This document shows, one piece after another, positions 5,896 through 29,659 of a stretch of DNA of 64,000 nt (within the stretch, counting starts at the first letter, position 1; each line of letters starts with the position of its first letter). The notes beneath the pieces were generated by a model. The model was not told the origin of the DNA, made no database searches, and saw only the letters and a program-made list of their open reading frames with translations. This stretch comes from Escherichia phage phT4A. The stretch lies in the sequence record NC_055712.1; one strand, given 5' to 3'. A program made the position numbers and the translations under genes.

Positions 5896-5945
5896 GGTAT
5901 GTGTGTATAATACAAAAGCCCTCACGAGAACGCAAGGGCTTTTTA
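5896..5945 (-). promoter_or_regulatory. PeSL-like early promoter-stem-loop cassette
   Basis: minus strand TTGCGT-17nt-TATTAT with GC hairpin GCCCTTGCG..GTGAGGGC in -35/spacer, followed by ACACACAT leader. Confidence 0.55.
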
Positions 5946-5977
5946 TTAAATTTCGTATAAATCTGGATTCACAATAA

Positions 5978-6007
5978 CCGCACATAAAAGATCATCTATA
6001 TGTGCGG
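5978..6007 (-). terminator. stem-loop terminator after Nudix/NMNAT genes
   Basis: perfect 9-bp stem CCGCACATA/TATGTGCGG. Confidence 0.5.
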
Positions 6008-6043
6008 CTTCTTGTTCTAAGGTTTGCTTAGATGAATGTGCTT

Positions 6044-6622
6044 TCAAGCAACCCCCGTAAAGGCGTTTACTATCTGGAAATGATCATCGAAGAATTCCCC
6101 TTGTCGTTGCACGACCTCATGCATAGGTAGCCAGAACGCGTCTGCTGCATCATCAGCACCGCCCATGATACGAGGCAATGAACCATCGTTATTAGGTTCG
6201 AGCTTGATATACTGTGCTACAGTCGGTTTTGAGAAGTACACCGAACGTTTCGGATGATCGAACAGCATCGAATTACGGATAGAACCACGAATAACCTTTT
6301 CAGGTACTTTAATTCGTACTTCTTCCAGTAATTCACGGATCGCACAATCAAGGAACGTTTCGTTACCGTTTTTGTGTCCACCCGGAAGCGCTAACGCATC
6401 TTTACCAGGCGCAAACTTACGACGGATTACTAACACGTGGTTATTACATACGACCACTGAATCAGCCGTGCAACAGTTCAGAGAATCCGGATACGGATAT
6501 TTTTTGAACTTGTCAATCTCTCGTTGCCAGTGCGCATCTTCATGGGACAAACGCTGGAATTCTTTTGTTTGTGTCCATTCATCGATAAAGGAAACCGTAG
6601 TGCTAGGCGCATATTTTAACAA
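6044..6622 (-). CDS. Nudix hydrolase domain protein (probably C-terminal half of a NatV-like NMNAT-Nudix fusion)
   Basis: Nudix box GGHKNGNETFLDCAIRELLEEV; no ATG start (ORF track begins at TTG); reading frame open across stop of upstream NMNAT ORF. Confidence 0.7.
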   Translation of the reverse strand: MLKYAPSTTVSFIDEWTQTKEFQRLSHEDAHWQREIDKFKKYPYPDSLNCCTADSVVVCNNHVLVIRRKFAPGKDALALPGGHKNGNETFLDCAIRELLEEVRIKVPEKVIRGSIRNSMLFDHPKRSVYFSKPTVAQYIKLEPNNDGSLPRIMGGADDAADAFWLPMHEVVQRQGEFFDDHFQIVNAFTGVA

Positions 6623-7116
6623 ATCTTCGTCCCAGCTTCATGGTGTTCCCAGATAATTTTGCGTAAATTGGTCGAGGACAGATCCTGGTCTCCAACCTTC
6701 ACAGATTCAACCGGAATATGATTCCATCCGAATGCTTTAAGCCAGTAAGAATCTTTGTCTTTTTCGTACCCGACGATCGCAATTCGGTCATTTCGAGTTT
6801 CATCGATTGCCATACGAACACGGGATTTCCATTTTTCCTCGTTATAGAGATAATCCGGAATGTGAGCGAATTTGATTCTGGCTGCATCTTCAACATCAAG
6901 TTTGCAGATAGACCAGCGAGTGATCATTGCTTGACGCTGTTTAGCGGTCAATGGGTTTAATGTGTTCGGATATGCATAAGCAGAACCGATCAGAATGTAA
7001 ACCGTATCAGCAACAGCAAGGGCTTCCCTTACCATTTTCTCATGACCATAGTGAAAAGGTTGAAAACGTCCAATTACTACAGCTTTATCATATTTGTGTT
7101 TCATAACGTGCTCCAC
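6616..7116 (-). CDS. nicotinamide/nicotinate mononucleotide adenylyltransferase-like (NMNAT)
   Basis: HxGH motif VVIGRFQPFHYGH and C-terminal SxTxxR motif SSTNLRK. Confidence 0.7.
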   Translation of the reverse strand: MEHVMKHKYDKAVVIGRFQPFHYGHEKMVREALAVADTVYILIGSAYAYPNTLNPLTAKQRQAMITRWSICKLDVEDAARIKFAHIPDYLYNEEKWKSRVRMAIDETRNDRIAIVGYEKDKDSYWLKAFGWNHIPVESVKVGDQDLSSTNLRKIIWEHHEAGTKIC

Positions 7117-7253
7117 GTTTAAAGGTTAATCATAAAACAGACGCAATTATTAAAACACCAAACAATCCACCAATGAAACCAAAGAATAGTGAAATGAGTA
7201 TTGTCAATACGATCTGTTTTATGTTCATTATAGTATTCTCGTTTTAGATGTCA

Positions 7254-7272
7254 AGCCCCCAAAGAGGGGGCT
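7254..7272 (-). terminator. GC-rich hairpin after SPFH gene
   Basis: AGCCCCC-AAAGA-GGGGGCT; weak T-run. Confidence 0.45.
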
Positions 7273-7280
7273 TTAAAACA

Positions 7281-8207
7281 TTATTTACGAGAATCGAAAA
7301 TCACTTTACCCGCATAATCCGAACCCATTACAGTTTGAGGTACGCCACCTTTATAGCGGGTAGAGTAGTTCATCTGTACATCCAGTTCTTTCCAGCGGAT
7401 CATTTCCGGTGTAATGGTGCGTTGCAGGGCGGCGTTGGCTTCTGCTTCTTTCTTCGCTGCATACAGACGGGCATCAGCATCACGTTCGTTAGCGATTGCA
7501 GCGTTTTCACGCGCCTGGCGATCGGCTTCCGCTTGTTTTACTGCTTGTAATGAAGTCTGTTCTACTTTTTGCAGTTCAGCTTTAGCAGCGTTAACCTGTT
7601 CTTCGCGGATCTTCGTGTTAGTTACCTGTTCCATGATAACTTCCGGCAGGGTGATATCCTGCAAGAATACCTGTTTCACAGTGTAACCGTAAGGCCGTGC
7701 ATAATCTTCTACTTCCTGCTGAATTGCGATTTGCAGTTGGTTTTGGATCTTCGCATCAAACAGGTCTTGCGCTTTTGGTACGGATTTACCAAATTCGCGA
7801 ACAGTGGAAAGCAGTTTTTCAGTTACATACTTATCCAGTGCCTGATCCTGATTACCCGCGTTGATACGGTTGATCGGTGCTTTGCTACCGTCGAATTGCA
7901 GCATTACGGTCATATCCACAGTGGATTTAAATTTATCCTGGGACGGAACCTGTAATTTGTCGAACTTCATCGCGATGTCTTTGGTGCTGAACGTATCAAA
8001 CGTTGCCAGCGGGTTTACAATGTGGAAACCAGGCAGTACGGGTTTCGGTGATACTTTACCCATGAAGGTTTCAGTTTTAACCGTACCGTCTTGCACAATG
8101 GTATACATGTTAGGCACTAACCACAGTGCTGCGACTACGCCCAGAGCGATCAGAGAGGTTTTCTTCGGGTTGTTCACGATAGTGTTTAAGTTCATCATAA
8201 TTTCCAT
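7281..8207 (-). CDS. SPFH/band-7 (HflK/C-stomatin-prohibitin-like) membrane protein
   Basis: N-terminal TM helix SLIALGVVAALWLV, SPFH-like core, Ala/Gln/Glu-rich coiled coil AKAELQKVEQTSLQAVKQAEADRQARENAAIANERDADARLYAAKKEAEANAALQR. Confidence 0.65.
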   Translation of the reverse strand: MEIMMNLNTIVNNPKKTSLIALGVVAALWLVPNMYTIVQDGTVKTETFMGKVSPKPVLPGFHIVNPLATFDTFSTKDIAMKFDKLQVPSQDKFKSTVDMTVMLQFDGSKAPINRINAGNQDQALDKYVTEKLLSTVREFGKSVPKAQDLFDAKIQNQLQIAIQQEVEDYARPYGYTVKQVFLQDITLPEVIMEQVTNTKIREEQVNAAKAELQKVEQTSLQAVKQAEADRQARENAAIANERDADARLYAAKKEAEANAALQRTITPEMIRWKELDVQMNYSTRYKGGVPQTVMGSDYAGKVIFDSRK

Positions 8208-8266
8208 AAGTTGTTGTTCAATTCGATAGTTATTCTATCATCACATTTCACGCTGTCAAACTATTT

Positions 8267-8650
8267 TTAAGAAAGTTTTGTCAGCTTGTAGATTGTTTGA
8301 TAGCACAAGCCCTTAATCTCGTCCAGGATGTTCTTCAAAGAACTATCTACTGATTCGTAGATCTCGTTTGCTTCGTTGGCTATTTTACGGAGATACGCCA
8401 CCGTGTCAAGCACATTTTCGGTTTTTAGCACAGGTTTGTATCTTCCCGTGATTCCTATGTGGATTTCGGTGAATTTATCAACCAAATCCTGCATATCTTC
8501 GTAAAAACCCTCATATGCTTTATGTTGTGAGTATGAACCTGTTGCAAAATGTGCGCTATGCATATAGGTAACGGACATAAGGCACATGCCAATAAAGGCA
8601 TCTATCTTGCTTGAGTTCTCAGATTCTGTAATTTGTTTAAATGATTGCAT
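8267..8650 (-). CDS. hypothetical protein
   Basis: start moved to MQSFKQ with AAGGGA RBS. Confidence 0.4.
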   Translation of the reverse strand: MQSFKQITESENSSKIDAFIGMCLMSVTYMHSAHFATGSYSQHKAYEGFYEDMQDLVDKFTEIHIGITGRYKPVLKTENVLDTVAYLRKIANEANEIYESVDSSLKNILDEIKGLCYQTIYKLTKLS

Positions 8651-8660
8651 GATGATCCCT

Positions 8661-8963
8661 TTATGAACGATGGATACTTGCAAACTCATACGCGACCCTG
8701 ATTCCTAGCTTTGCGCATTCGGATTCAGATCGGCATTGTTTTTGGTGCCATTTTCGTTCCATGTAGTTGTAGAATAGTTCGCTTGTATTTACGCTGGGAG
8801 GGATCGTTGTGATGTATACTTGAAGGGCCGCATTAATATAATCGTCAAATTCTTTCTGAACCGGACGGTCGGCGGCGTGTGTTGTGGGTGTCATCATCAA
8901 CAATCCGAACAGCACAGCCATTGATATGCGTTTAATGTTCATAACAATTACTCTTTTACTCAT
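8661..8963 (-). CDS. secreted/periplasmic protein with signal peptide
   Basis: N-terminus MNIKRISMAVLFGLLMMTPTTHA-ADRP, AxA-type cleavage site. Confidence 0.45.
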   Translation of the reverse strand: MSKRVIVMNIKRISMAVLFGLLMMTPTTHAADRPVQKEFDDYINAALQVYITTIPPSVNTSELFYNYMERKWHQKQCRSESECAKLGIRVAYEFASIHRS

Positions 8964-8991
8964 AGACCCACTATAGGTCTACTCCTGTATA

Positions 8992-8999
8992 TATTTATA
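8992..8999 (-). promoter_or_regulatory. T4-type late promoter TATAAATA
   Basis: exact TATAAATA on minus strand about 29 nt upstream of ATG at 8963. Confidence 0.55.
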
Positions 9000-9047
9000 G
9001 CAAAAACGAGGCCAAGCCTCGTTATAATATTTTTGCTGTAAAGTCAA

Positions 9048-9440
9048 TCAAGTAATGTCATACCAACACAAACTTCTTTCGAAAGCGCGTATTTTGTTCA
9101 CGTTTTCTACGTTTTCGTCCCAACCGATCACACCAGCTTTCATACGTTTCAGTTCCTGACGTAAACGGGTACGTACTTTTGAATCAATTTTCTTTACTGC
9201 AATAGAAAGCATTGCATTCAGATCGCCATGAGCTTTGTTACCGTCGCGACACAGATTATTATCAAATCGAATGTATGCACATCCTGATTTGTGTTTCCAG
9301 TTGGTTGAGTACCAACGCAACCCATCCGGATCAATACCATGTTGAGCATAATAACGAGAATACTCTTTTACTTCTTCGATCTTTTCGTTAGATGAACGGT
9401 CACGAAGAGGATTGTATTTCTTACGGTAAGTGCGACTCAT
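9048..9440 (-). CDS. hypothetical protein
   Basis: 130-aa basic ORF downstream of tk. Confidence 0.45.
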   Translation of the reverse strand: MSRTYRKKYNPLRDRSSNEKIEEVKEYSRYYAQHGIDPDGLRWYSTNWKHKSGCAYIRFDNNLCRDGNKAHGDLNAMLSIAVKKIDSKVRTRLRQELKRMKAGVIGWDENVENVNKIRAFERSLCWYDIT

Positions 9441-9456
9441 AATGATCTCCTTTTGT

Positions 9457-10743: not shown

Positions 10744-10745
10744 GA

Positions 10746-11525: not shown

Positions 11526-11849
11526 TTAGTAAAGTCCTATGCCAGCATTGAATTCGTCAACCAAATAAGTACGGAACTTTTCGCACCGTTCCTTATTTGG
11601 CGCTTGTTTGCATAGATTCATCATTGGTTCAGACTGCAAAAACTCTTTTTGTTTCAGCAACTTACCGCGTTTATACAGGTGAGCATTTTCCTCTCCCCAC
11701 ATATAAGCAACATCTAACTGTTCTGCGATCACTTGCTTACATACTGCGACATCTTTGATATCACGATTGTTGCATAACTCATCCAGGCGAGCATCACCCG
11801 CGTGAGCAAATCCAGCAACCAGAGTTAAAAGCAGTGCTAACTTTTTCAT
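11526..11849 (-). CDS. secreted/periplasmic Cys-containing protein
   Basis: signal peptide MKKLALLLTLVAGFAHA-GD; 4 Cys in mature part. Confidence 0.45.
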   Translation of the reverse strand: MKKLALLLTLVAGFAHAGDARLDELCNNRDIKDVAVCKQVIAEQLDVAYMWGEENAHLYKRGKLLKQKEFLQSEPMMNLCKQAPNKERCEKFRTYLVDEFNAGIGLY

Positions 11850-11858
11850 GATGATTCC

Positions 11859-12458
11859 TTATTCATCCTCTTCGATAGGAGTATAATAATGCGCATTACA
11901 GATATACGCAAGAACTTTTTTCAGAGACATATCCGAGAATGTCGGATCCTGGTTTCGTCTCATCCCACTACCAGTTTCAACAGCCCAACGTTTGTTAGCT
12001 GGATTGTATGTCAGCCAGTAACAATCCCATTCAGACAGAGTATGTTCGAACAGATCGAAACGCTTACGCCCATTTGCTTGCGGCCTGACAAAAGGTTCAA
12101 CCATTTCTAAAGCGGTTAAAACTCGATTAAGGTTTGAACCGTCTTCATCCATCGCGATCCGCAAACAGTATTGGTTAATGTCCGGATCCATACCATCGAT
12201 ACCCAGACCGATAGATTCGAAAAATTTTGTTGCCGCGTGATAAGACACACTGGAAGAACGATATTCCAACATCACGGGGATCTTTTCCCCGTCCTTGACG
12301 TTGTTAATGATATCCTGATCGATGAGTTCAATCAGGTCTCTTTTCTCTTTAATCAACGTGGAAATTTCTTCTTGCAGTGGGGCTATCTGTGCATGAAGTT
12401 CTTTTATCCGTTGATCAATTACGGTCACTTCGAAAGCTAAATTTCTCATTGTACCCAT
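11859..12458 (-). CDS. hypothetical protein
   Basis: 199-aa ORF, N-terminal coiled coil. Confidence 0.45.
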   Translation of the reverse strand: MGTMRNLAFEVTVIDQRIKELHAQIAPLQEEISTLIKEKRDLIELIDQDIINNVKDGEKIPVMLEYRSSSVSYHAATKFFESIGLGIDGMDPDINQYCLRIAMDEDGSNLNRVLTALEMVEPFVRPQANGRKRFDLFEHTLSEWDCYWLTYNPANKRWAVETGSGMRRNQDPTFSDMSLKKVLAYICNAHYYTPIEEDE

Positions 12459-12632
12459 TCCCCGTTTTTGTCAATATACATGATCCAATCAGCAACCGAC
12501 CAATGGGAAGTATTGCCTTTCGGAGTCGCTACGATGTAGGAACCAGCTTTAAACAGTACGCGTTTAGTTTCGTTCAGGATCAGGTCGCTCATAATGTATT
12601 CCTCTCAATTAGATGCATCCATAATAAAAAAG

Positions 12633-12656
12633 CCCCCGACCGAAGTCAAGGGCTTT
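12633..12656 (-). terminator. rho-independent terminator
   Basis: imperfect hairpin followed by TTTTTTATTAT on minus strand after ORF ending at 12660. Confidence 0.5.
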
Positions 12657-12659
12657 TTG

Positions 12660-13920: not shown

Positions 13921-13921
13921 T

Positions 13922-14116
13922 TTACAATTCAACCTCGTTTTTACAGTATATACATTCAATAAAATCAACTTTTCGCATGTTGAAGAAATATGAACCCTCA
14001 GAAGATTTTTCCTTGTGTTTTACATCTTCCGCGTCATATTTCATAGTAGTATCACAACAATTGCACGTAACAATACGAGATTTTGCATTTATGATCTCAA
14101 TCATGATACACCTCAA
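13922..14116 (-). CDS. small zinc-ribbon protein
   Basis: CNCC...CIYC; paralog of next ORF. Confidence 0.4.
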   Translation of the reverse strand: MRCIMIEIINAKSRIVTCNCCDTTMKYDAEDVKHKEKSSEGSYFFNMRKVDFIECIYCKNEVEL

Positions 14117-18007: not shown

Positions 18008-18271
18008 TTAAAGTTCACAGCAACGGCACACACCGTATTTTGTAAATGGAGCATCACCGCTAACGTAGGCCCAGAAATCACATGCTTCTTCGGCAGTATC
18101 GAAGATTGCGGCATCATAGAACCCGTGGGCTTCGTTACCGTTCTCATCGATGAAAACCGGAGTCCAGATATTAGGATTGAAGCAATCGTCAACAACAACC
18201 CAACCTTCTTTATCTTTCATTGCTTCTTTGTTGGCTTCGATGTGAGCTAAGATTTCGTTCATGATGTCCAT
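18008..18271 (-). CDS. hypothetical protein
   Basis: 87-aa ORF. Confidence 0.4.
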   Translation of the reverse strand: MDIMNEILAHIEANKEAMKDKEGWVVVDDCFNPNIWTPVFIDENGNEAHGFYDAAIFDTAEEACDFWAYVSGDAPFTKYGVCRCCEL

Positions 18272-18284
18272 TTTTCTCTCCTAA

Positions 18285-18337
18285 AGTGTGTTTCGTTTCT
18301 ACAGGGCTATAGTCTCATAACCCCGTATCTACGTCAA
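18285..18337 (-). promoter_or_regulatory. degenerate PeSL-like cassette
   Basis: TTGACG -35-like box and conserved GTAGAAACGAAAC leader; -10 weak. Confidence 0.35.
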
Positions 18338-18340
18338 CAC

Positions 18341-19034: not shown

Positions 19035-19214
19035 AGAGTTTCCTTTAAATCGGTTTAATGGTTTTCAGGTGTAGTTTAGCATAAGAAGAACCAAATGAGT
19101 TACCATTATGATCAAACTTATGTTCTTCACTCTTCCAGTATTTCCCCGATTTCATCAAGGGTATACGCTTCTTACCTGCTGTTATCGTTTCAACCATTCC
19201 GGTATGAGTGAATG

Positions 19215-20177: not shown

Positions 20178-21328
20178 TTCAATTCCACCGCGTATACATC
20201 CAATTCAGGGGCTTTGTGTACGCGCATATCTTTACCACATACAGCATAAGCCGGACAGTTACGGCAACCATTATGATCCTTATTACCGATCAATTCCTGA
20301 CGGAATTTCTTAGTTTTCGGATGTTCCCAGATATCTTTGATAAAGTCACTGGCTTCCAGTACGTTAAGCCCTTCTGACCATCCACCCTCGACCCAACGTT
20401 CAGTAAAGGAACAAGGGAAGAATTCACCCTTCTCGTTGATGTACGAGCTAAACATAGTTGCTTCGCAATCTTCCGCGTACTGTTTGTATTGTTCAAAATT
20501 TTCATGCCCTTCCATAGCCTCTACAAAGGCCGGAGCGGAACAGGAATCAAAACCGAACCCTACACCGGATTCAAGGCAATAATCTACCAGCGCTTTATAC
20601 TGCTCGCGTGTAACGGTATCCCAGTTCTTCCCACGACCTTTTTGTTTCAGACCCAGGAATACGATCGCGTTAACTTGTTTCAAGCGCGGATCATTCTTTA
20701 CAGCATCAACCACGTTAAACGCGTCATCATAGGTTTTAGAGCTAACCATGAAATGAAGGTTGATTTGCTGTTGTCCGGCTTCTGCAAGATTAGCCACTGA
20801 ATTAAACGCTACATCGAATCCAGCATGTTTGTATACTGATACCGCAACAGCCCCAGCAACAGCCGCTAAACGCGCTGCAACGTCTTTTGATACATCAGCA
20901 ATGGTAAGGTTCGGCACAATGCCTTTAGAACGCGCATAGGCCATCATATCAAACATATCAGGGTTTGTTTGTCCCTGTGCATCAGCACCGAGGGCGCATT
21001 GAGTCAGCCAGGGCATTTTGTCGATGATTTTGGTGAAGGTGGCAAGATCCATGTTGAACCCGTTCGGGTTATTGGACTTGTAGCAGAACCCGCAGAGTTT
21101 ACCCGCTGGCCCGTTGCATTTGGTAGTGATCTCGATATCGAGGATAAAAGGAAAATGACTATAAATAGGATCGTCAGCAGGAGTTTTTCCCCAAGTCATC
21201 ATATGACCTGTTTTCATATCAAAATTAAAATTAACCTCTTCGGAACGATAGATTTTCTTTCCTTTCGCTTCCAGTAGAAGTCCAACAGGCGTTTTGATAT
21301 GTTTGGCGTTTACTTTAACGTGTCTCAT
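20174..21328 (-). CDS. Cys-rich putative Fe-S / radical-SAM-like enzyme (uncertain)
   Basis: N-terminal cluster ITTKCNGPAGKLCGFCY (Cx8CxxC) and C-terminal CRNCPAYAVC (SPASM/twitch-like); start set at MRHVKVN with GAGG RBS. Confidence 0.35.
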   Translation of the reverse strand: MRHVKVNAKHIKTPVGLLLEAKGKKIYRSEEVNFNFDMKTGHMMTWGKTPADDPIYSHFPFILDIEITTKCNGPAGKLCGFCYKSNNPNGFNMDLATFTKIIDKMPWLTQCALGADAQGQTNPDMFDMMAYARSKGIVPNLTIADVSKDVAARLAAVAGAVAVSVYKHAGFDVAFNSVANLAEAGQQQINLHFMVSSKTYDDAFNVVDAVKNDPRLKQVNAIVFLGLKQKGRGKNWDTVTREQYKALVDYCLESGVGFGFDSCSAPAFVEAMEGHENFEQYKQYAEDCEATMFSSYINEKGEFFPCSFTERWVEGGWSEGLNVLEASDFIKDIWEHPKTKKFRQELIGNKDHNGCRNCPAYAVCGKDMRVHKAPELDVYAVELK

Positions 21329-21340
21329 AGGAACCTCATA

Positions 21341-22069
21341 ATGTATTACGTTTACAGAATCACGAATGTTATAGAGAACAAGCACTATTATGGATCAAGA
21401 AAACCTAAAAAGTCAATGCTTGCTTCCGACGATTTAGGGAAACACTATTTCAGTAGTTCCCGTGATAGTCATTTCATCCAGGATCAGAAGGAAAATCCAG
21501 GACACTACAAATATAAAATAATCGTATCTGGGTTGTCAAGGGAAAAAGCGATGAAACTTGAGAAAAGGTTACACGAAATCTACAAGGTGGACAAGAACCC
21601 ACATTTTTATAACAAACACATACACAACAGCATTGATTTTTCATGTACGCCAGAAACAGGAAAGAAGATTTCTCAAACACATCAGAAATACGCAGCAAAG
21701 AAAATCTCAGAATCCCATAAAAGGCGATTCAAGGAAGGTATTGCATCACACAAAGGAGAGAACAACCCACGATACAACGACCATCGGTCTTATGAAGAGA
21801 TACACGGAGAGGAAAGAGCGGAAGCTATACGTAAAGCGCAATCTGAATCAAGAAGTGGAAAAGGCAATTCCCGCGCGGTTATGTGGAGATTTACTTCCCC
21901 TACTGGAGAAGAATTTTTAGTTGAAGGAGAATGTAAAAAGTTTTGCAAAGACAGAAATATTTCCATGCGCAAACTGAAAACATATTTTGGTGAAGTCATC
22001 ACAACATGTGATAAACCCTACGATATCTCTAAGAATACCGTAGGATGGAAATTAGAAAAGATTATTTGA
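21341..22069 (+). CDS. GIY-YIG homing endonuclease (seg-like), divergent from neighbours
   Basis: MYYVYRITN...HYYGS GIY-YIG motif, basic K/R/H-rich C-terminal region; sole + strand gene in a minus-strand block; AT-rich. Confidence 0.7.
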   Translation: MYYVYRITNVIENKHYYGSRKPKKSMLASDDLGKHYFSSSRDSHFIQDQKENPGHYKYKIIVSGLSREKAMKLEKRLHEIYKVDKNPHFYNKHIHNSIDFSCTPETGKKISQTHQKYAAKKISESHKRRFKEGIASHKGENNPRYNDHRSYEEIHGEERAEAIRKAQSESRSGKGNSRAVMWRFTSPTGEEFLVEGECKKFCKDRNISMRKLKTYFGEVITTCDKPYDISKNTVGWKLEKII

Positions 22070-22316
22070 ATCTTCTTTTACGTTCGTCAGCCAGTTCTTT
22101 TTTGTACGTTTTGATGTACTTCCCGTTAAGGATGCGAAGCTGTTGGAAAACCTTGTTGCACAAAGCACGTTTCGCTTTGTATTCAGGCGTATTGCGGATT
22201 GATTCGATCGTCATCCCCATTTCATTTTTAGGGTACGCGCTCAACTCCCTGCCGATCTCTCTGTGCCAGTTGCTTAACTGATCACGCTGTGCTTTGTACT
22301 CTTCAAAAGTTAACAT
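22062..22316 (-). CDS. hypothetical protein
   Basis: 84-aa ORF. Confidence 0.4.
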   Translation of the reverse strand: MLTFEEYKAQRDQLSNWHREIGRELSAYPKNEMGMTIESIRNTPEYKAKRALCNKVFQQLRILNGKYIKTYKKELADERKRRFK

Positions 22317-22324
22317 AACAATCT

Positions 22325-22385
22325 CCGGTTTCGTTTCTATGTGTGTAAGGTATCATTACCCTACACACAACGCAAGCGATTTTTA
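22325..22385 (-). promoter_or_regulatory. PeSL-like cassette (degenerate)
   Basis: TTGCGT-17-TACCTT, ACACACATAGAAACGAAAC leader. Confidence 0.4.
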
Positions 22386-22722: not shown

Positions 22723-22974
22723 TCATTTGATACGTACCGCGTTAAAAGCCTGGTTGCGCAGTTCATAAGCCTGTTCAAGCTGTTCAGTAGTGAACAGAGG
22801 ACTATCAGTGTTAGTGGTGAAACTGCAAATGGTTTTGTTGTCGGCGTTGACTTCTTCGACAACGATTTCATAACCCCAGATCCCGCTGTACTCACATTTC
22901 ACGTTCCGGTACTTGATGTAAACTGCTGCAACATCTTCTTTTTTGTAGTTCCGGCTTTTGTAGATGATTTCCAT
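22723..22974 (-). CDS. hypothetical protein
   Basis: 83-aa ORF. Confidence 0.4.
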   Translation of the reverse strand: MEIIYKSRNYKKEDVAAVYIKYRNVKCEYSGIWGYEIVVEEVNADNKTICSFTTNTDSPLFTTEQLEQAYELRNQAFNAVRIK

Positions 22975-22984
22975 GATTTCCTCC

Positions 22985-23045
22985 TTCGTTTCGATGTGTG
23001 TACAATAACAGATCAGGGTTATCGAGTTTTAGCAATTTGTGCTAA
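22985..23045 (-). promoter_or_regulatory. PeSL-like cassette (degenerate)
   Basis: conserved ACACACATCGAAACGAAGGAG leader; -35 unclear. Confidence 0.35.
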
Positions 23046-23324
23046 TTATGCCATTTTCTTAGCGATTTTCCAGGAGGCTTTGAACGCCGGAACGTCTTCA
23101 ATATCAATCCAGAAACCAGATCCGAAACCATCACTATAGCAAGGGCAACCGTCGCAGTAGTTTTCCCAGGTCATCACTTCACCACCAACAGAAGCACCAG
23201 TTTCCATAGCACGTAATGCATCTTCAACTTTTTCCAGTTTTTCGGCGTTGTCGTCGTAAATGACAAAGTACCATTTACCGTTGTATTCGTTACCAAGTTT
23301 GATAGCTTCGCGAACAAGTTTCAT
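23046..23324 (-). CDS. hypothetical protein
   Basis: start at MKLVREAIK directly after PeSL leader and AGGAAATCATC RBS. Confidence 0.45.
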   Translation of the reverse strand: MKLVREAIKLGNEYNGKWYFVIYDDNAEKLEKVEDALRAMETGASVGGEVMTWENYCDGCPCYSDGFGSGFWIDIEDVPAFKASWKIAKKMA

Positions 23325-23339
23325 GATGATTTCCTTTTT

Positions 23340-23408
23340 GTCTGTTTCGTTTCTATGTGTGTAATATAACAAAACCCCTCACCATTGGCAAGGGGTTTTT
23401 GCAAAAAT
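23340..23408 (-). promoter_or_regulatory. PeSL-like early promoter-stem-loop cassette
   Basis: TTGCCA-17-TATATT with hairpin CCCCTTGCCAATGGTGAGGGG, leader ACACACATAGAAACGAAACAG. Confidence 0.6.
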
Positions 23409-23668
23409 TATCGTTTGATTGGGGTATTATCTATAACCCGTTGAATTTCCGAACGCATCGTAGAATACTGGCACAATTCGGTAAGCGCCCGATCCAGGTG
23501 CATCATAGCGTAAGAAAACTCTTTTCCGCATTTGTCGCATCGAGCGTATAAATGTAAATGGATGCGCCCGATCCCATCTACCTGACTATATTTCTTGAAT
23601 ATGTAAGGTTTTGCACCTCGATAGCCAGTAGCTTCATGCTTACACTCTCGTTTTTTGAACCATGACAT
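23408..23668 (-). CDS. hypothetical Cys/His-containing protein
   Basis: 86-aa ORF. Confidence 0.4.
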   Translation of the reverse strand: MSWFKKRECKHEATGYRGAKPYIFKKYSQVDGIGRIHLHLYARCDKCGKEFSYAMMHLDRALTELCQYSTMRSEIQRVIDNTPIKR

Positions 23669-24243
23669 TAATAATATCCTTGTACGTTGAAGCGGTCACA
23701 CAACAATCTACGTGTTTGGTTAGTATCGCTTTGGATAGAATGCAACATAGCGCTGAACATGTTTAGGTTATTTTGCATCATTTCCGCGCTCATGAGAACT
23801 TCCATACGCGCACGTAAGCGTTTATTTTCTTCTTCCAACTCAACCATACGGTCATATGCTTTGATGCGCTCTAAGGGCATATCAGGACGCTCTTTGAGTA
23901 CGCGAGCACGTTCAACCTCACAAGCATGATTTGCTTTCCAGTGGTTCGATTCCGCTTCAAATTTATTAAGGCGGCGGATCTCTTCAACCATCTTTTTGAT
24001 CATGTGTGGATCCATCATGTCGATGAATTTCATCAGGCAATTGGATTTTGTTTTGTTGTCAGCACCAGACCAAGACGAATTATACGTAACGGTAAACGTG
24101 CGGCCCATTTCATCAACAACCCCGATCTTGTTATCATCGGTGATTGTAGCCGCCCATTTATCCCGCATGGCTGTACAGGTTCCGCTGGCGACACTATGCA
24201 ACTTGTTTAATGTTGCATCATCAAATACAATTTCATCACTCAT
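23668..24243 (-). CDS. hypothetical protein with C-terminal coiled coil
   Basis: 191-aa ORF. Confidence 0.45.
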   Translation of the reverse strand: MSDEIVFDDATLNKLHSVASGTCTAMRDKWAATITDDNKIGVVDEMGRTFTVTYNSSWSGADNKTKSNCLMKFIDMMDPHMIKKMVEEIRRLNKFEAESNHWKANHACEVERARVLKERPDMPLERIKAYDRMVELEEENKRLRARMEVLMSAEMMQNNLNMFSAMLHSIQSDTNQTRRLLCDRFNVQGYY

Positions 24244-24250
24244 ATATGCC

Positions 24251-24649
24251 TCACATAGATTTCAAAATACGCAGAAGTGCGTTAGTAAAGATATCAGGAA
24301 CACAACCACCAAACAACTTATGATTCATCAGCGCTAATTTCATGCTGTGATTTTCAGTATATCGCCCGTTATGGATCCCCCAGGCAACGACATTACCAGG
24401 TTCATGAATAACTAAGTTAGTGAGAGTAACGGTCATGCGCTCTTTATCATTGATAGAGAATGAATAGCAGTAACCGGATCCGATGTCGCCGTAAAGGTTA
24501 AGGTCTTTCAATTTCCCTTGCTCATGCAAGCGTTTCATATGAACTGCACATGCATGATTAATGGTCATTTCGTCATCCCTAGCCCAATCATCAATACCAG
24601 AGGTATAACGAATATTGAAATAGTTAGTCAGTTCATTTGATACGCTCAT
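24251..24649 (-). CDS. hypothetical protein
   Basis: start set at MSVSNE with GTGAGG RBS. Confidence 0.4.
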   Translation of the reverse strand: MSVSNELTNYFNIRYTSGIDDWARDDEMTINHACAVHMKRLHEQGKLKDLNLYGDIGSGYCYSFSINDKERMTVTLTNLVIHEPGNVVAWGIHNGRYTENHSMKLALMNHKLFGGCVPDIFTNALLRILKSM

Positions 24650-24827
24650 TAGAAACCTCACTTTTATAAAATTCTTTACCAGTCCCATTACAGCTACTGC
24701 ATTTGGGGGAACGGTTGCTATCATACCGCCCCGATCCGTTACATGCAACACATTTCCTTAATTTCCAGCCATACACGAACCTCATATAATAATCAGTTCG
24801 TGCGGCCTTGCGTTCGTGGAAATTCAT
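24633..24827 (-). CDS. small DnaJ-type zinc-finger (CxxCxGxG x2) protein
   Basis: CVACNGSGR and CSSCNGTGK. Confidence 0.4.
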   Translation of the reverse strand: MNFHERKAARTDYYMRFVYGWKLRKCVACNGSGRYDSNRSPKCSSCNGTGKEFYKSEVSNERIK

Positions 24828-24967
24828 TCGATTTCTACCGAGTAACCTTCTTTACGTTTTTGGTCAGCGAAATTTCTTGCGCCTCCCCAATCGTAACAGG
24901 TTCTACGACCAACTTCTGAATCATTATGAAACCAAATCACGGTATATCGCTTTCCCATAATAACCTC

Positions 24968-25171
24968 TTAAACTTTGTTGTAAACCTGAACCAACCACAT
25001 TTCGATGTTAGGCGCGTAAGTAACGTTTACCTTATGCATTGTGCGGTATTTGTAAGCGGCTTTGTATGCATCGAGTTCAGTCGGAACACAGAAAGAGAAA
25101 CCGTTGTCATAGCGTTCTGCGTTAGAAACTTCACAACCAACTACAGCGGCAATATTTTTGTTCATGTTCAT
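24968..25171 (-). CDS. hypothetical protein
   Basis: start MNMNKNIAAV after PeSL leader with AGGAAAACATC RBS. Confidence 0.45.
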   Translation of the reverse strand: MNMNKNIAAVVGCEVSNAERYDNGFSFCVPTELDAYKAAYKYRTMHKVNVTYAPNIEMWLVQVYNKV

Positions 25172-25186
25172 GATGTTTTCCTTTCT

Positions 25187-25250
25187 CTGTTTCGTTTCGA
25201 TGTGTGTAATATAACAAAGCCCCTGCACTAATGCAAGGGCTTTTTGATTA
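25187..25250 (-). promoter_or_regulatory. PeSL-like early promoter-stem-loop cassette
   Basis: TTGCAT (25236-25231) -17 nt- TATATT (25213-25208) with hairpin GCCCTTGCATTAGTGCAGGGGC; leader ACACACATCGAAACGAAACAG. Confidence 0.65.
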
Positions 25251-26162
25251 TTTTGGTAATTTTTCGATTGTTGCTTTCAACTCATTGATTTTATTAAAGA
25301 GTTCATCGCTATATTTCATCAACTCACTACGGCGTTTTTCGGCCCACTTGATCAGGAATTCAGGAGAATCTACACCATACGTGTAACCTTCTGCACTCAG
25401 TTGAATACGAGCACGGGAACCATAATCAACAGAACTTTGTTCAATGAGAAACTTAACCGCATCAAGCAGGGCTAAATCTTCATGACTTACCATGATTCCT
25501 TCTGCCTTTGGAAGATCCACAACTTCATCCTGAATGAGTTCACGGCGGGTTGTTTCTTCCAGTGTTTCATGATTCTGGATCATCGTTTCGACCGGATCCT
25601 TTGCCACGGCTGGTTTGTTTTCACCTACTTCTTCCAAAAACATCAAAATCCATCCAGGAATTTTAGTCCGGAAAGAACTTTGTACTTCACTGGTGCATGA
25701 ATTTCCCAGAATGTGGATCGCGTTACCATGCATATCAGCTTTATTGATATAGATAACGTTCTGCTGTTCCTGTCGGTTGCTACCATAAGAAAGGAAGCGG
25801 CGTAACGATGTGTTATGACCATACTTCCCTAAATCGATTTCAGCCAGGCAATCAATGATCCCACGGTTAGAAACCTTGTAACGCTTACCCTGTTTGAAAA
25901 ATAACGATTCTTCCAGGTGAGTAGGGGTAAACTCTTCATAAAGAACATAGAATTCTTTAGGAATTTTGCGCTGAACCAGACTCAGTTTACAATTATTAGA
26001 AGGAACAATAACAGAGTGAATGTTTCCTTCGGTATCACACATAGCTTGCATTACTTGCGGATAGTAAAGATGGTCTTTCTTGCAAGTATAGCTATGGATA
26101 CGACTCTGACGTTTTTTGAAGTACCATTTACCAGTTTCAAAAGGCGCTGTTGTAAAATTCAT
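25248..26162 (-). CDS. hypothetical protein, translationally coupled to upstream DUF262 gene
   Basis: 304-aa ORF; 4-nt overlap with 26159-26689. Confidence 0.45.
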   Translation of the reverse strand: MNFTTAPFETGKWYFKKRQSRIHSYTCKKDHLYYPQVMQAMCDTEGNIHSVIVPSNNCKLSLVQRKIPKEFYVLYEEFTPTHLEESLFFKQGKRYKVSNRGIIDCLAEIDLGKYGHNTSLRRFLSYGSNRQEQQNVIYINKADMHGNAIHILGNSCTSEVQSSFRTKIPGWILMFLEEVGENKPAVAKDPVETMIQNHETLEETTRRELIQDEVVDLPKAEGIMVSHEDLALLDAVKFLIEQSSVDYGSRARIQLSAEGYTYGVDSPEFLIKWAEKRRSELMKYSDELFNKINELKATIEKLPK

Positions 26163-26689
26163 TTTGCATTCTCATACATAGTTAAAATTGCTTGCATATG
26201 TTCCGGTGATTGTGGAACCCCTGCAAAGTTCACTTTCAAAAAGAAATTCAACCGATCTTTTATGTTGCACTCATCGAGTCCAAGCGCTGGCAATGAAATG
26301 TTTTCAAAAGCACGTTGTTCATGTCTTTCCATTTCACCCCAAAACAAACGGGAACCGTTAGGCATCGGTATTCCAATTTCATTGTTCCAGAATTTCATGA
26401 TAGTTGTCAAGCGTTGTTTTCCATCAATGACTTCTACCCATCGAGATTCGTTGAATTCACTATCAACCGCGATCGCAATGATACCGCAAGGAAACCCAGT
26501 AATCAAAGTCTTCATGAAAGCATCTTGCTCTTTCTGCTTCCACACGTAGGGCCGCTGATAGGACGGATTCAGATCCAGATCGTTGTTCTTGAACCAATGA
26601 ATGTAACTACCAACCATGATCGCATGATCGCGACTTTGGAAAGTTTTTAACTCACGAATACGGTTTCTTACAATTTCGTCTGTCATTAT
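26159..26689 (-). CDS. DUF262 / ParB-like nuclease domain protein
   Basis: LNPSYQRPYVW and VIDGKQRLTT (DGQQR-type motif); start set at MTDEIV (ATGA overlap with upstream stop). Confidence 0.6.
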   Translation of the reverse strand: MMTDEIVRNRIRELKTFQSRDHAIMVGSYIHWFKNNDLDLNPSYQRPYVWKQKEQDAFMKTLITGFPCGIIAIAVDSEFNESRWVEVIDGKQRLTTIMKFWNNEIGIPMPNGSRLFWGEMERHEQRAFENISLPALGLDECNIKDRLNFFLKVNFAGVPQSPEHMQAILTMYENAK

Positions 26690-27009
26690 AAAATCACCAT
26701 CCAGTATATAATCGTAATCATAACCGCTACAGTGAAACACATTGCAGCATACACACGCGCATTATGAACCTGTGTTTTCAATTCTGCGATCTCTTGATCC
26801 TTTTCGCTTTCAAACTCTTCGCGAGTACCATAATACCCAGGATCGTTAGCAGTTGCCAATCTAACCGCATCTTTTTCAACCAGCGTTGCGTAACCGCTTT
26901 TTATTTGTGTCGCCCCGTACCATCCACCCCGATCGTTGTTAATGATCAGATGATCGCCTTTTTCGTTATGCTTTGATTCGCCAACAACAATAACCCGCTT
27001 ACCATTCAT
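26686..27009 (-). CDS. hypothetical protein with C-terminal TM helix
   Basis: 107-aa ORF, hydrophobic tail AAMCFTVAVMITIIYWMVIL. Confidence 0.4.
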   Translation of the reverse strand: MNGKRVIVVGESKHNEKGDHLIINNDRGGWYGATQIKSGYATLVEKDAVRLATANDPGYYGTREEFESEKDQEIAELKTQVHNARVYAAMCFTVAVMITIIYWMVIL

Positions 27010-27016
27010 AATATGA

Positions 27017-27034
27017 TCCTCAAAGGGGCCGAAG
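27017..27034 (-). terminator. GC hairpin
   Basis: AGGGGC-CGAA-GCCCCT; weak T-run. Confidence 0.4.
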
Positions 27035-27037
27035 CCC

Positions 27038-27295
27038 CTATTTCGCGTTCTTCTGTAGATAATCTAACAGATTTCCGCTTTGATGTAAATCCAAAACTTT
27101 AGAAAACTTCTCTGCGTTTCTTTCGTTTGTGAGTTCGTCGAAATGCCATACACCATCATCAGCTATTAACGCGCCAGGTGATGAACCTGTTTCTACATCA
27201 CGGGAAAGCGCAAGCCCCAGAGGGTGTAAGATTTCGCGGTTAATGCGCCAAACAAGGCCCATTTCAGATAGAGTAGTAAAATCGACGTATTTCAT
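27038..27295 (-). CDS. hypothetical protein
   Basis: 85-aa ORF. Confidence 0.4.
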   Translation of the reverse strand: MKYVDFTTLSEMGLVWRINREILHPLGLALSRDVETGSSPGALIADDGVWHFDELTNERNAEKFSKVLDLHQSGNLLDYLQKNAK

Positions 27296-27296
27296 A

Positions 27297-27680
27297 TTAT
27301 GCCTTTGGTTTCACACCGTAGGCCAACATACCAAAACGATGATCATTATCTGCATCTTTAAACAGAACTTCGTTACCATCAATGCAGAGAACCTTTGCTT
27401 CCGGATCGATGTATGGAAGCAACCACAAAGGGATCAGGCGTAGGCCGCTATGTTCATCCCAGCGACTGAAATTAAGTTCTTCCAGTTCATCAAGGGAAAA
27501 CTCATTAGGATCGATATAACGGAACCATTTGGTATTTTTGAGGCGGTCAGGGAAGTTTACAATTTCTTCATAGCCGAATTCAGCACTCCATGAAGAGTAA
27601 ACAGTGACTTCGGATGCTTTGGTTAAAACAGCATCGCGAATTGATTTGCAGATATCGATTAAAGTCAGTTGATTTTCCAT
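27297..27680 (-). CDS. hypothetical protein
   Basis: 127-aa ORF. Confidence 0.4.
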   Translation of the reverse strand: MENQLTLIDICKSIRDAVLTKASEVTVYSSWSAEFGYEEIVNFPDRLKNTKWFRYIDPNEFSLDELEELNFSRWDEHSGLRLIPLWLLPYIDPEAKVLCIDGNEVLFKDADNDHRFGMLAYGVKPKA

Positions 27681-27690
27681 GATATATTTC

Positions 27691-28098
27691 TCATCTTGCT
27701 AAAATTTTAGGCAGTAGTTGCCCCATCGTTTTACGTGCATGTGACGGAATCTGTGATACTGGGACATATTTGAAATCATCCATTTCACGTATAGTCCGTC
27801 CGTTCTTAACGAAAGTGGATGCACAATAGCATTCTTCCGCTACTGGGTAATCTTGCCCTACATAGAGAAATAAAGCAAGGTTTTTTGTTTTCGTGTAATC
27901 GAGAACACCCAGGCTAACCAATTCCTCCGCGAACACTTCAAATCCTGTTTCTTCAAAGCATTCACGGATCGCCGCGTCAATATGAGTTTCGCCCTTTTCA
28001 ACATGCCCCTTCGGAATATCCCAATGGGGCGTTTCAGTGGCATGGCCCATCAACACGGCACCATCTTTAATAAAGATAATACCCGCTGATAGTTCCAT
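27691..28098 (-). CDS. Nudix hydrolase (NudE-like)
   Basis: canonical Nudix box GHVEKGETHIDAAIRECFEETGF. Confidence 0.8.
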   Translation of the reverse strand: MELSAGIIFIKDGAVLMGHATETPHWDIPKGHVEKGETHIDAAIRECFEETGFEVFAEELVSLGVLDYTKTKNLALFLYVGQDYPVAEECYCASTFVKNGRTIREMDDFKYVPVSQIPSHARKTMGQLLPKILAR

Positions 28099-28344
28099 TT
28101 ATTCACCTTCAAAAGCGTTATCAAATGCTTCAAGTGCTTTGTTAGCGCGAGCACTGGCTTTTGTCACACCAGCAGAAAGGTTTTCGAAGAAAGTATGTTT
28201 CCACACTTCGCGGCGACTGGATTCATGTTCCAGACTGTTTTTGTGATCACCGCGAATCTGTTCTTCCATGTCATAACGGTACAGATCGAGTTCTGCGTTT
28301 AATTTCTGTTCTAATGCCTGTGCAAATACATGTTCAATATTCAT
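28099..28344 (-). CDS. hypothetical protein
   Basis: 81-aa ORF. Confidence 0.4.
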   Translation of the reverse strand: MNIEHVFAQALEQKLNAELDLYRYDMEEQIRGDHKNSLEHESSRREVWKHTFFENLSAGVTKASARANKALEAFDNAFEGE

Positions 28345-28592
28345 TTTGTATAGCCTATTTCAGATTTAAGGTTTTCGAGGGTGGAGTGATAAACAACATT
28401 CCCTTCGTGTCGAGTATACCATACTTTTCCGTTCTGGTTACACTCATTCATTACATTTTCATCTAAACCAGGGATCGGCTTCATGCTGGGAGAAAACGCG
28501 ATAGACATCATTTGTTCCGCACTATCAGCAAACCCACAAGGGAAAACAGATCCAGTTGGTTTATCAAGATACATCAACTCTACTTTAGCCAT
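28341..28592 (-). CDS. hypothetical protein
   Basis: start tentatively at MAKVEL; overlaps neighbour. Confidence 0.3.
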   Translation of the reverse strand: MAKVELMYLDKPTGSVFPCGFADSAEQMMSIAFSPSMKPIPGLDENVMNECNQNGKVWYTRHEGNVVYHSTLENLKSEIGYTK

Positions 28593-28878
28593 AGATTTCT
28601 TCGAAATCCTCACAATCAGGCAAATACGTTTCACAGAAGGTGCAAAGCGTAAAGAATGCAGGTTGACGAATACCAGGATTATCCGGTAGATACATCCAGA
28701 AGGTGTTAGCAAACACGATGAATGTTTTCAGGTTTTCGGTGGTAATTTCGCTAACACCATCATACCCGGATTGATTGATCGCGCGTTGCAGTGGCACCTC
28801 GTACTGTTCGCAATAGTCGGCATAATGATCGCTTGTTACAAGGCCATTAGCCATTTTAATCAAATCGACGATTTTCAT
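28585..28878 (-). CDS. hypothetical protein
   Basis: 97-aa ORF. Confidence 0.4.
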   Translation of the reverse strand: MKIVDLIKMANGLVTSDHYADYCEQYEVPLQRAINQSGYDGVSEITTENLKTFIVFANTFWMYLPDNPGIRQPAFFTLCTFCETYLPDCEDFEEIYG

Positions 28879-29210
28879 GATTTTACATATTCCACTTTAA
28901 CAGGTTTTGCAACAAATTTATCTTTGGTGCGCCCATGACCATTACACAGGTCACATTCTTTGTTGAAATCTTTCATATCTTCGACCCATCCAGAATCTGG
29001 CAACCCAGACGGATATGCGTTATAACGAATGGTTTCATAACCTTTTCCGTTGCATTTCGGGCAAACATGAGGACGTTCTTTTTTAGCAGACTCTGCCAGT
29101 TCGCGAAGGGTGGTAGAACTACCATAAGCCCGACACATGTTTTCAAAGTCTTTTAAAGTCATTCTATAAACATCAATGACGTTATATTTTTTGCCGGATG
29201 GTTTAGCCAT
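28875..29210 (-). CDS. DnaJ-type zinc-finger (CxxCxGxG x2) protein
   Basis: CPKCNGKGY and CDLCNGHGR; start at MAKPSGKKY. Confidence 0.45.
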   Translation of the reverse strand: MAKPSGKKYNVIDVYRMTLKDFENMCRAYGSSTTLRELAESAKKERPHVCPKCNGKGYETIRYNAYPSGLPDSGWVEDMKDFNKECDLCNGHGRTKDKFVAKPVKVEYVKS

Positions 29211-29450
29211 AATATATTTCTCACTTAAAGAATTTTTTGATGAAAGAGATAGCAAGGCCGATACCAAAGAAAATTAAGTAACCTTTTCCGTCACCGTGCG
29301 CCAAAACATAGAGTGAGCTGCCGTATGCGATGAGTTCTGCGATGTTCATTAAGTTTCTCATGATATCCTCCTTTTTCTATATTAAGTATCTTACCATAAT
29401 ATAAACCAAAGTCAACAACAAAGTTTTATCAACCCACTTATCACCAGTCA

Positions 29451-29591
29451 TTAGTAATCCCCTACAGGTTGAGACGCCGCAACACTCAGGATCTTGAAAG
29501 TGCAATTGTTCCATTCACAATAAGTTTTTGCGCAATGAACACTTCCTTTCATAACAAACCCGTTTGAGAAAATTAACCAGTAAAGTTTCAT
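29451..29591 (-). CDS. small hypothetical protein
   Basis: 46-aa ORF starting right after PeSL leader with AAGGAGG RBS. Confidence 0.35.
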   Translation of the reverse strand: MKLYWLIFSNGFVMKGSVHCAKTYCEWNNCTFKILSVAASQPVGDY

Positions 29592-29595
29592 GATA

Positions 29596-29659
29596 GCCTC
29601 CTTTGTTTCGACAAGGCCAATATAACAAAGCCCCTGCACGAATGCAAGGGCTTTTTTCA
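29596..29659 (-). promoter_or_regulatory. PeSL-like early promoter-stem-loop cassette
   Basis: TTGCAT-17-TATATT with hairpin GCCCTTGCATTCGTGCAGGGGC, near-identical to copy at 25187-25250. Confidence 0.6.

Follow-up and report, generated by a model that had tools for sequence, protein, structure and literature searches.

Putative promoter-in-terminator cassettes of the PeSL kind form a sequence family of the RB43/Slopekvirus clade in the early region of Escherichia phage phT4A

Composite elements that join a sigma70-like early promoter to a stem-loop were defined in the T4-like phages RB49 and phi1 as Promoter(early) Stem-Loops (PeSLs) and sorted into five subclasses, including one in which the stem-loop overlaps the -35 (Arbiol, Comeau, Kutateladze, Adamia, Krisch 2010, PMC2839356). 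The RB49 and phi1 PeSLs are AT-rich upstream and carry a Shine-Dalgarno sequence (SD) and an ATG downstream, and about 50 of them are present per genome, mostly in hyperplastic regions beside differential open reading frames (ORFs) (PMC2839356). In the same study, their promoter and terminator activity was proven with lacZ reporters, crossovers were located between the -10 and the ATG, and mini-circles were detected by inverse polymerase chain reaction; RB43 received only a passing mention, of 'PeSL-like sequences' at the g43 locus (PMC2839356). A later analysis of PST/T4 and nt-1/KVP40 showed that each T4-like subgroup possesses its own PeSL sequence family, in addition to 'half' PeSLs (Comeau, Arbiol, Krisch 2014, PMC4122927). 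The RB43/Slopekvirus clade lay outside that analysis. Here, we describe a repeated cassette of about 75 bases, with a host-type promoter sequence placed inside a transcription-terminator hairpin, in a 64,000-nucleotide (nt) stretch of Escherichia phage phT4A (NC_055712.1), referred to below as the window. These elements are likely to be composite early-promoter/intrinsic-terminator cassettes that also act as a recombination substrate, and would represent a PeSL-kind sequence family specific to the Slopekvirus/RB43 clade.

By megablast, the window falls among the Slopekvirus phages, T4-like myoviruses of Klebsiella (KP15, KP27, Miro, Matisse), with about 110 records at 95-99% identity. A more distant set, at ~80% identity, comprises phages of Enterobacter, Cronobacter, Citrobacter and Escherichia (RB43, RB16). 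Judged from annotated relatives, window positions 1 to ~34.9 kb hold small early genes, nearly all on the minus strand, and the remainder consists of plus-strand structural genes. The early block is flanked by the baseplate genes gp25 on one side and gp53/gp5 on the other and contains tk, rI, endolysin, phoH, nudE, 57A/B and genes 1 and 3. Since it aligns to close relatives in 7-13 pieces with 75-95% coverage, it is a hyperplastic region.

Five full copies of the cassette, named here by their approximate position in kb (5.9k, 12.6k, 23.4k, 25.2k and 29.6k; Table 1), follow one geometry, in which a stop codon is succeeded by an A5 tract, the hairpin, a 17-nt spacer, the -10, 6 nt, a conserved block, the SD and the ATG. 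The hairpin is GC and 12-13 bp long, and the -35 TTGNNN spans its 5' arm and loop. The spacer between -35 and -10, which measures 17 nt in 5/5 full copies, is made up of the 3' arm and a U/T-rich tail, the -10 reads TATATT or TATTAT, and the SD and ATG lie 20-35 nt past it. The pattern of hairpin plus -10 was matched 3 times compared with 0.00 expected by chance, and the leader pattern 4 times compared with 0.05. Furthermore, the three cassettes in the 20-40 kb interval rank as its top three terminator-like hairpins, and the 25.2k and 29.6k copies are identical across ~40 nt save one loop base. Other gaps in the early region hold plain terminators without a promoter and plain promoters without a hairpin.

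Four of these elements, all on the minus strand, had been proposed by an earlier, sequence-only reading of the window, and they were confirmed at the positions given there with the shared geometry. Its description of a -35 within a GC hairpin, a 17-nt spacer and a -10 of TATATT or TATTAT is true of every strong copy. A possible limitation of the repeats to coding sequence did not apply, as all copies are intergenic or reach only into the final codons of the upstream gene. The earlier list was real but incomplete, missing a fifth full copy (12.6k) and partial copies at 11.9k and 2.0k. The three weaker copies that it had added (18.3k, 22.3k and 23.0k) do possess a promoter-like site and a leader, but lack the hairpin (nhmmer E of 0.3, 9e-6 and 1e-4, respectively). 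Similarly, the leader it described as conserved is complete (ACACACATMGAAACGAAAC) only in 23.4k and 25.2k among the full copies, and in two hairpin-less copies, but is reduced to ACACACATACC in 5.9k and to GGCCTTGTCGAAAC in 29.6k.

An nhmmer profile was built from the five window copies. The window holds 5 full and ~5 partial copies, all in the 35-kb early region; the profile search of the window returned no additional full copy and none in the late/structural half. By the same search, 12 full copies (E < 1e-7) were found in the complete p4515 genome, 5 of which match those of the window while 7 lie elsewhere, on both strands, and 11 in the divergent Enterobacter phage CYPEBC003. The family consensus can be written as AAAAAGCCCTTG(AC/CA)-tetraloop-(GT/TG)CRGGGGCTTT(T)GTTATATT-N6-ATCGAAAC(GAAAC)...SD...ATG. 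When the 79-nt 25.2k cassette was compared by blastn (word size 11) with 50,697 phage records, 185 records were matched at 1389 places, typically 5-12 per genome. Save a few weak ones, these matches are confined to the RB43-like clade, and no RB49-group phage is among them. A strict pattern scan of IMG/VR retrieved KP15, RB16, RB43, CfP1 and several uncultivated genomes of ~140-180 kb, and an Rfam scan of the entire window at the gathering threshold gave zero family matches.

The cassettes resemble the RB49 and phi1 PeSLs in combining a sigma70-like promoter with a terminating GC stem-loop ahead of the SD and ATG, and in standing in multiple copies before small ORFs of hyperplastic regions. 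Indel junctions lie inside the elements in both cases, and a crossover in the relative KLB27, described below, is likewise located between -10 and ATG. The geometry is that of the published subclass with the stem-loop overlapping the -35, and every defining PeSL feature that a sequence can reveal is present. In contrast, no sequence similarity to the RB49 and phi1 elements is detectable, a genome holds 11-12 full copies instead of ~50, one fixed geometry takes the place of five variable placements, and a conserved RTYGAAAC(GAAAC) stands at the predicted start. Promoter, terminator and mini-circle activity were shown in RB49 and phi1, whereas the promoter and terminator activity of the cassettes here is predicted from sequence. 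The sequence-only reading had matched them to the PeSLs of RB49-type phages; the published definition does fit, but the phage is of the RB43 type and its cassette has no detectable similarity to RB49-group phages. Because of this missing similarity, the cassettes are, as far as sequence comparison goes, an analogous family and not a homologue of the RB49-group PeSLs. PeSL families differ between subgroups, and therefore the missing RB49 similarity still allows membership of the PeSL kind.

Other described systems share part of this design. The stems of nt-1 (A3-4G3-loop-C3T3-4, with a -35 of TTGYVH) resemble the A-tract/GC/T-tract stem and the TTGC/TTGA hexamers found here, and the 'degraded half-PeSLs' correspond to the hairpin-less copies of the window (PMC4122927). 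The PST/T4 and nt-1/KVP40 systems differ in host range and clade, and their promoter(middle) stem-loops (PmSLs) use a Mot box, which the cassettes here lack. The T4 internal-protein (IP) loci also have repeated promoter/stem-loop elements (Repoila et al. 1994, as discussed in Arbiol 2010, PMC2839356). These short, conserved regulatory repeats border small genes that are not essential and enable their shuffling; as summarized in Arbiol 2010, they differ in having T4-type early promoters, weaker AT-rich stems and an occurrence at two loci only. Within the library searched, no paper ties PeSLs to Klebsiella or Slopekvirus phages. Combined, the cassettes are a new sequence family of an element kind already described for other T4-like phages in 2010, and their notable traits are the fixed two-function geometry, the conservation across genera and the conserved start-site block.

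The same layout with different leaders was also seen in a few unrelated IMG/VR viral contigs (L048 5046-5079, L075 5917-5950, L077 5083-5116 and L083 3958-3990). In these, an AAAGCCC...GGGGCTTTT terminator holds TTGAC in its 5' arm, and TATAAT or TATATT follows 17 nt on. Contigs L048 and L075 showed no nucleotide similarity to the RB43 clade, their only matches being to tRNA or distant terminase sequences. The occurrence of one design in these four contigs suggests that the promoter-in-terminator layout arises convergently.

All copies fold into one hairpin on the sense strand (-17 to -22 kcal/mol), and the five window copies reached fold z-scores of -4.0 to -6.8 against shuffles. In alignment A1, 92% of cells are paired, compared with at most 64% when the partners are slid, and the two apical pairs contain 21 double-sided compensatory cells where 8.3 are expected (0/500 shuffles as high). 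The profile and covariation check that had been proposed for the aligned copies thereby recovered the family and supported the stem pairing. The invariant TTG stays paired through changes of the 3' partner alone (U.G to U-A, G-C to G.U). G.U pairs are frequent in the stem and become A.C mismatches on the opposite strand, and the antisense fold is weaker (-15.5 to -16 kcal/mol). Selection for pairing therefore seems to act on the transcribed strand, as would suit an RNA terminator and not a DNA cruciform. This asymmetry bears on the idea that the hairpin acts as DNA, either by forming a cruciform or by binding a recombinase or nuclease, so that the cassette would be actively mobile instead of offering passive homology. 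In its favour, the conserved stem was speculated by Arbiol et al. to be a protein target, the symmetry of A-tract and T-tract gives the element a bidirectional look, and the KP27 depositors annotated terminators on both strands. However, with pairing selected on one strand only, crossovers that map outside the hairpin, no terminal inverted repeats or target-site duplications at the cassettes, and a fixed orientation and distance to the ATG, a role at the DNA level is extremely improbable.

In E. coli promoters, TTG and TA...T are the key positions in sigma70 recognition. An alignment of 26 distinct copies drawn from three genomes was invariant at the TTG of the -35, at TAT..T of the -10, and at the A-tract, the C's and the T-tract of the hairpin. 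Both the sigma70 contacts and the pairing of the stem are under selection, and the combination of invariant contact bases and a paired stem fits a dual role, with the same sequence serving as a putative promoter in DNA and as a putative terminator in the sense RNA.

In the database records of KP15 (GU295964) and KP27 (HQ918180), the orthologues of all five full copies appear as overlapping 'putative middle promoter' and 'terminator' features. These derive from separate MEME and ARNold predictions, and the KP15/KP27 paper describes no composite element, repeat family or indel link (Maciejewska et al. 2016, PMC5219037). If the MEME-derived label were right, the promoters would be of the MotA-dependent middle type and the cassettes would be PmSLs rather than PeSLs, and TTGC does resemble the start of the Mot box (tTGCTT). 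However, TGCTT occurs in 0/26 copies, the hexamers being TTGCAT, TTGCCA, TTGCGT, TTGACT and similar, with several copies at the near-consensus TTGACT. The hexamer is also 17 nt from the -10, as in sigma70 promoters, compared with 11-13 nt for a Mot box. In addition, RB43 was reported to have no MotA orthologue, no middle promoters and no middle-promoter motif, its early promoters being sigma70-like with a G at -33 (Nolan et al. 2006). A middle-promoter assignment is very improbable, and it was rejected on motif, spacing and literature. Motif, spacing and the lack of MotA reported for RB43 lead us to argue that the 'middle promoter' label in the KP15 and KP27 records is wrong.

The conserved block begins exactly 6 nt beyond the -10 and is therefore at the expected transcription start site. 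RTYGAAA prefers this distance from TAnnnT, with 17 occurrences per genome compared with 2-8 at other distances, and within the window the pattern has 7 matches where 1.5 are expected. RTYGAAAC(GAAAC) sites are present in the window at 25201-25189, 23356-23344, 22340-22328, 29612-29605 and 2010-1998, and the block also occurs genome-wide in p4515 and CYPEBC003, at ~17 promoters per genome, with the hairpin present or absent. Kept across genera, AUCGAAAC(GAAAC) could conceivably be more than an initiation preference and act as an RNA tag at the 5' end that a phage or host factor reads, a suggestion that we consider improbable. If it is true, the AUCGAAAC(GAAAC) tag may serve mRNA stabilisation, processing or translation, and would unite early genes in a post-transcriptional regulon that is specific to the clade and moves with each cassette-bounded module.

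From sequence, covariation and analogy, we infer promoter and terminator activity, the starts and stops of transcripts, and early timing. As a promoter, the cassette would be read by host sigma70 RNA polymerase through the -35 TTGNNN in the hairpin and then the -10 TATATT/TATTAT 17 bp downstream, with a predicted start ~7 nt past the -10, at the R of RTYGAAAC(GAAAC). Transcription would run through a short leader rich in A, the SD and the ATG into the next small early gene. As a terminator, the element would act on read-through RNA from the upstream gene, which holds the whole cassette; here, the AAAGCCCUUGNN-loop-NNCRGGGCUUU hairpin and the U-rich promoter spacer would stop the transcript. 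Since cassette-born transcripts would start downstream of the hairpin, they would escape its termination, and by combining termination of the upstream transcript with a fresh start, the cassette would insulate the gene blocks on either side. Finally, near-identity of 40-80 nt between copies would let the homologous-recombination system of the phage cross over between them, so that 'cassette + ORF' modules may be deleted, inserted or exchanged.

Megablast alignments between window 1-35.5 kb and six relatives were chained, and the resulting junctions were then inspected. KLB27 lacks window 23402-25166 (4-5 genes) and carries one chimeric cassette in place of two cassettes plus 1.85 kb. The upstream half of this chimera (flank, hairpin, -10 and ACACACAT) comes from 25.2k and the downstream half (AGAAACGAAACAGACAAAAGG...ATG) from 23.4k, and the crossover therefore lies within the shared TTTGTTATATTACACACAT. 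R2_1 and Matisse possess an additional 333-nt gene at the 23.4k cassette, with a hairpin cassette upstream of it and a hairpin-less promoter plus leader downstream, and window 23341-23376 aligns to both. In PSKm2DI, the 5.9k cassette and the following 64-aa gene are swapped for a different cassette allele (TTGACT/UUCG type), which would drive the next gene.

The comparison of cassette positions with related genomes yielded positional orthologues as well as these recombinants. CYPEBC003 has positional orthologues for 5/5 full cassettes, with their order kept. Homology with this phage ends 1-2 nt from the 5' edge of the hairpin at three copies (5944 vs 5943, 23400 vs 23399 and 25245 vs 25243), and a fourth homology end, 12587, falls at the ATG of the 12.6k copy. 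Blocks that adjoin cassettes share 89-96% identity between the two phages, compared with a background of 66-81%, and 24972-25245, 95.6% identical to CYPEBC003, is precisely a cassette and one 67-aa ORF. This indicates that modules bounded by cassettes have been exchanged between genera. The proposal that cassettes are more conserved than their flanks was true for 29.6k and 5.9k (92% vs 72-89%) but not for 25.2k and 23.4k; the genes downstream of the latter two are equally conserved, and these cases were therefore reinterpreted as high-identity modules. Judged by the alignments, the cassettes are demonstrated crossover sites and module boundaries.

Indels of other origin were found in the same region. 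Direct repeats of 10-19 nt, formed by SD-ATG blocks such as GAGGAATACATTATGAGCG, border further gene-sized indels (12586-12604, 1657-1675 and 19040-19049). The 19-nt block 12586-12604, at the 12.6k cassette, marks the loss of a 396-nt gene (KP15_119) present in 7/7 relatives compared. By this sequence evidence, translation-initiation regions also serve as recombination patches. Homing-endonuclease genes are behind several presence/absence differences, namely 2038-2571 on the minus strand, 21299-22069 on the plus strand and a KLB27 insertion at 33569/33575; this last insertion (L007 42617-43170) is placed exactly at a terminator hairpin equivalent to window 33540-33574.

For breakpoints, 40 clusters across seven close relatives were analysed, with genes taken as minus-strand ATG-based calls, so that the intergenic totals are approximate. 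Full or partial cassettes contain 6/40 clusters and plain terminators 3/40. Relative to a uniform null, cassette breakpoints are in excess (6 vs 1.2 expected, P ~0.001), but this was dropped as a sign of special recombination activity, because the excess vanishes under a null restricted to intergenic DNA, for all cassettes (6 vs 5.9, P = 0.56) and for full copies only (5 vs 2.5, P = 0.09).

This result weighs against the composite-cassette interpretation, as do several others. Homing endonucleases and SD-ATG repeats account for other indels, and the observed crossovers map to the -10/leader or SD-ATG parts, not to the hairpin. Positional orthologues retain their own leaders across genera, and the copies are therefore stable fixtures and not actively transposing. 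The U-tract is interrupted (UUUGUUAUAUU) in most copies, and termination may therefore be partial. In addition, a literature search for Slopekvirus transcript maps found nothing usable. Alternatively, ordinary, independent terminators and promoters may happen to overlap in a packed genome, their similarity reflecting functional constraint and viable indels having to end between genes, with no special shuffling role for the cassettes. The level of cassette breakpoints, no higher than in other intergenic DNA, the many indels due to homing endonucleases or 10-19 nt SD-ATG repeats, the conservation of positional orthologues across genera and the same design in unrelated uncultivated contigs, suggestive of convergence, would all agree with this alternative. 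However, the copies share far more than function needs, as the near-identity of 25.2k and 29.6k illustrates, and the chimeric cassette of KLB27 proves a crossover between two copies. Furthermore, at three copies the homology between genera breaks off 1-2 nt or less from the hairpin edge, and modules of high identity adjoin them. Independent overlap is on these grounds unlikely, and composite cassettes of the PeSL kind are the preferred interpretation. The sequence-only reading had held that such cassettes probably explain the shuffling of small ORFs; the natural recombinants with junctions inside cassettes bear this out in part, but 6/40 breakpoint clusters without excess over the intergenic-only null do not. 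Cassettes account for a minority of events and have no shown preference over other conserved intergenic sequence in this sample.

The coordinates of the full cassettes, of the partial and degenerate copies and of one related composite are collected in Table 1. The -35 of the 2.0k copy overlaps the stop codon of an HNH endonuclease gene, and the 11.9k copy sits within the 3' end of gene 11859-12458.

Table 1. Cassettes and related elements in the window (profile E, nhmmer; fold z, z-score of the fold against shuffles).
Feature	Position	Strand	Hairpin	-35 and -10	Downstream part	Profile E	Fold z
Full cassette 29.6k	29589..29654	-	29654-29627	TTGCAT 29647-29642; TATATT 29624-29619	GTCGAAAC 29612-29605; SD AGGAGG; ATG 29591-29589	1.8e-16	-4.8
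Full cassette 25.2k	25169..25243	-	25243-25216	TTGCAT 25236-25231; TATATT 25213-25208	ATCGAAACGAAAC from 25201; SD; ATG 25171-25169	1.4e-22	-4.9
Full cassette 23.4k	23322..23399	-	23399-23371	TTGCCA 23391-23386; TATATT 23368-23363	ATAGAAACGAAAC from 23356; ATG 23324-23322	1.9e-19	-4.0
Full cassette 12.6k	12590..12657	-	12657-12628, UUCG loop	TTGACT 12649-12644; TATTAT 12626-12621	ATG 12592-12590	1.8e-15	-5.7
Full cassette 5.9k	5868..5943	-	5943-5914	TTGCGT 5935-5930; TATTAT 5912-5907	leader ACACACATACC; ATG 5870-5868	1.3e-17	-6.8
Partial copy 22.3k	22314..22378	-	no terminator hairpin	TTGCGT; weak -10 TACCTT	full leader ACACACATAGAAACGAAAC; ATG	8.9e-6	
Partial copy 23.0k	22972..23036	-	no hairpin	no well-spaced -35; -10 TATTGT	leader ACACACATCGAAACGAAGGAGG; ATG	1.2e-4	
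Weak copy 18.3k	18269..18340	-	no hairpin	TTGACG promoter-like site	GAAACGAAAC; SD; ATG	0.31 (profile kinship marginal)	
Partial copy 2.0k	1977..2046	-	no hairpin	TTGCAT-17-TATAGT	6 nt, GTTGAAACGAAAC; SD; ATG	0.05	
Degenerate copy 11.9k	11847..11923	-	weak, 11910-11890	TTGCGT-17-TATTAT	ATCGAAG; SD; ATG	3.7e-3	
Related, non-homologous composite	7226..7274	-	terminator hairpin GCCCCCTCTTTGGGGGC, 3' end abutting the promoter	consensus promoter TTGACA-16-TATAAT			

Several further features of the early region were noted. An insert at 13922-14110, absent from 7/7 relatives compared, holds a small ORF (64 aa), and another at 24828-24977, common only to PSKm2DI and located within the block that KLB27 lacks, holds a small ORF of 44 aa; the edges of these two inserts showed neither a cassette nor an obvious repeat. 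Positions 4728-4864 form 137 nt without an ORF beside an indel hot spot (4940-5422), where relatives have either additional genes totalling ~880 nt or a homing endonuclease of the mobE type. A divergent intergenic region of ~270 bp (32426-32701) is very AT-rich and contains two imperfect direct repeats of ~116 nt, edged by 42-nt inverted-repeat arms (32426-67 and 32660-701), with several GATC sites and sigma70-like promoter matches on both strands; R2_1 has an additional copy of 32470-32628. Tandem Repeats Finder reported nothing in the promoter-dense 32.2-32.9 kb interval. The region 32426-32701 may be origin-like or may form an array of divergent promoters.

For a T4 specialist, the existence of these cassettes may come as no surprise, and their use lies in annotation and phage engineering. 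In practice, they correct the 'middle promoter' labels, predict the boundaries of transcription units and mark safe points for insertion or deletion in engineered genomes. The original claim about shuffling is tempered, as cassettes appear as one of several routes of gene turnover, not demonstrably favoured in this sample, but the clade supplies clean natural recombinants at single-base resolution. The fixed design is economical, in that one sequence of ~45 nt would be selected both as a promoter in DNA and as a terminator in RNA. Taken together, these putative cassettes would carry the PeSL concept into the large clade of RB43 and Slopekvirus, to which many phages of Klebsiella, Enterobacter and Cronobacter under consideration for therapy belong.

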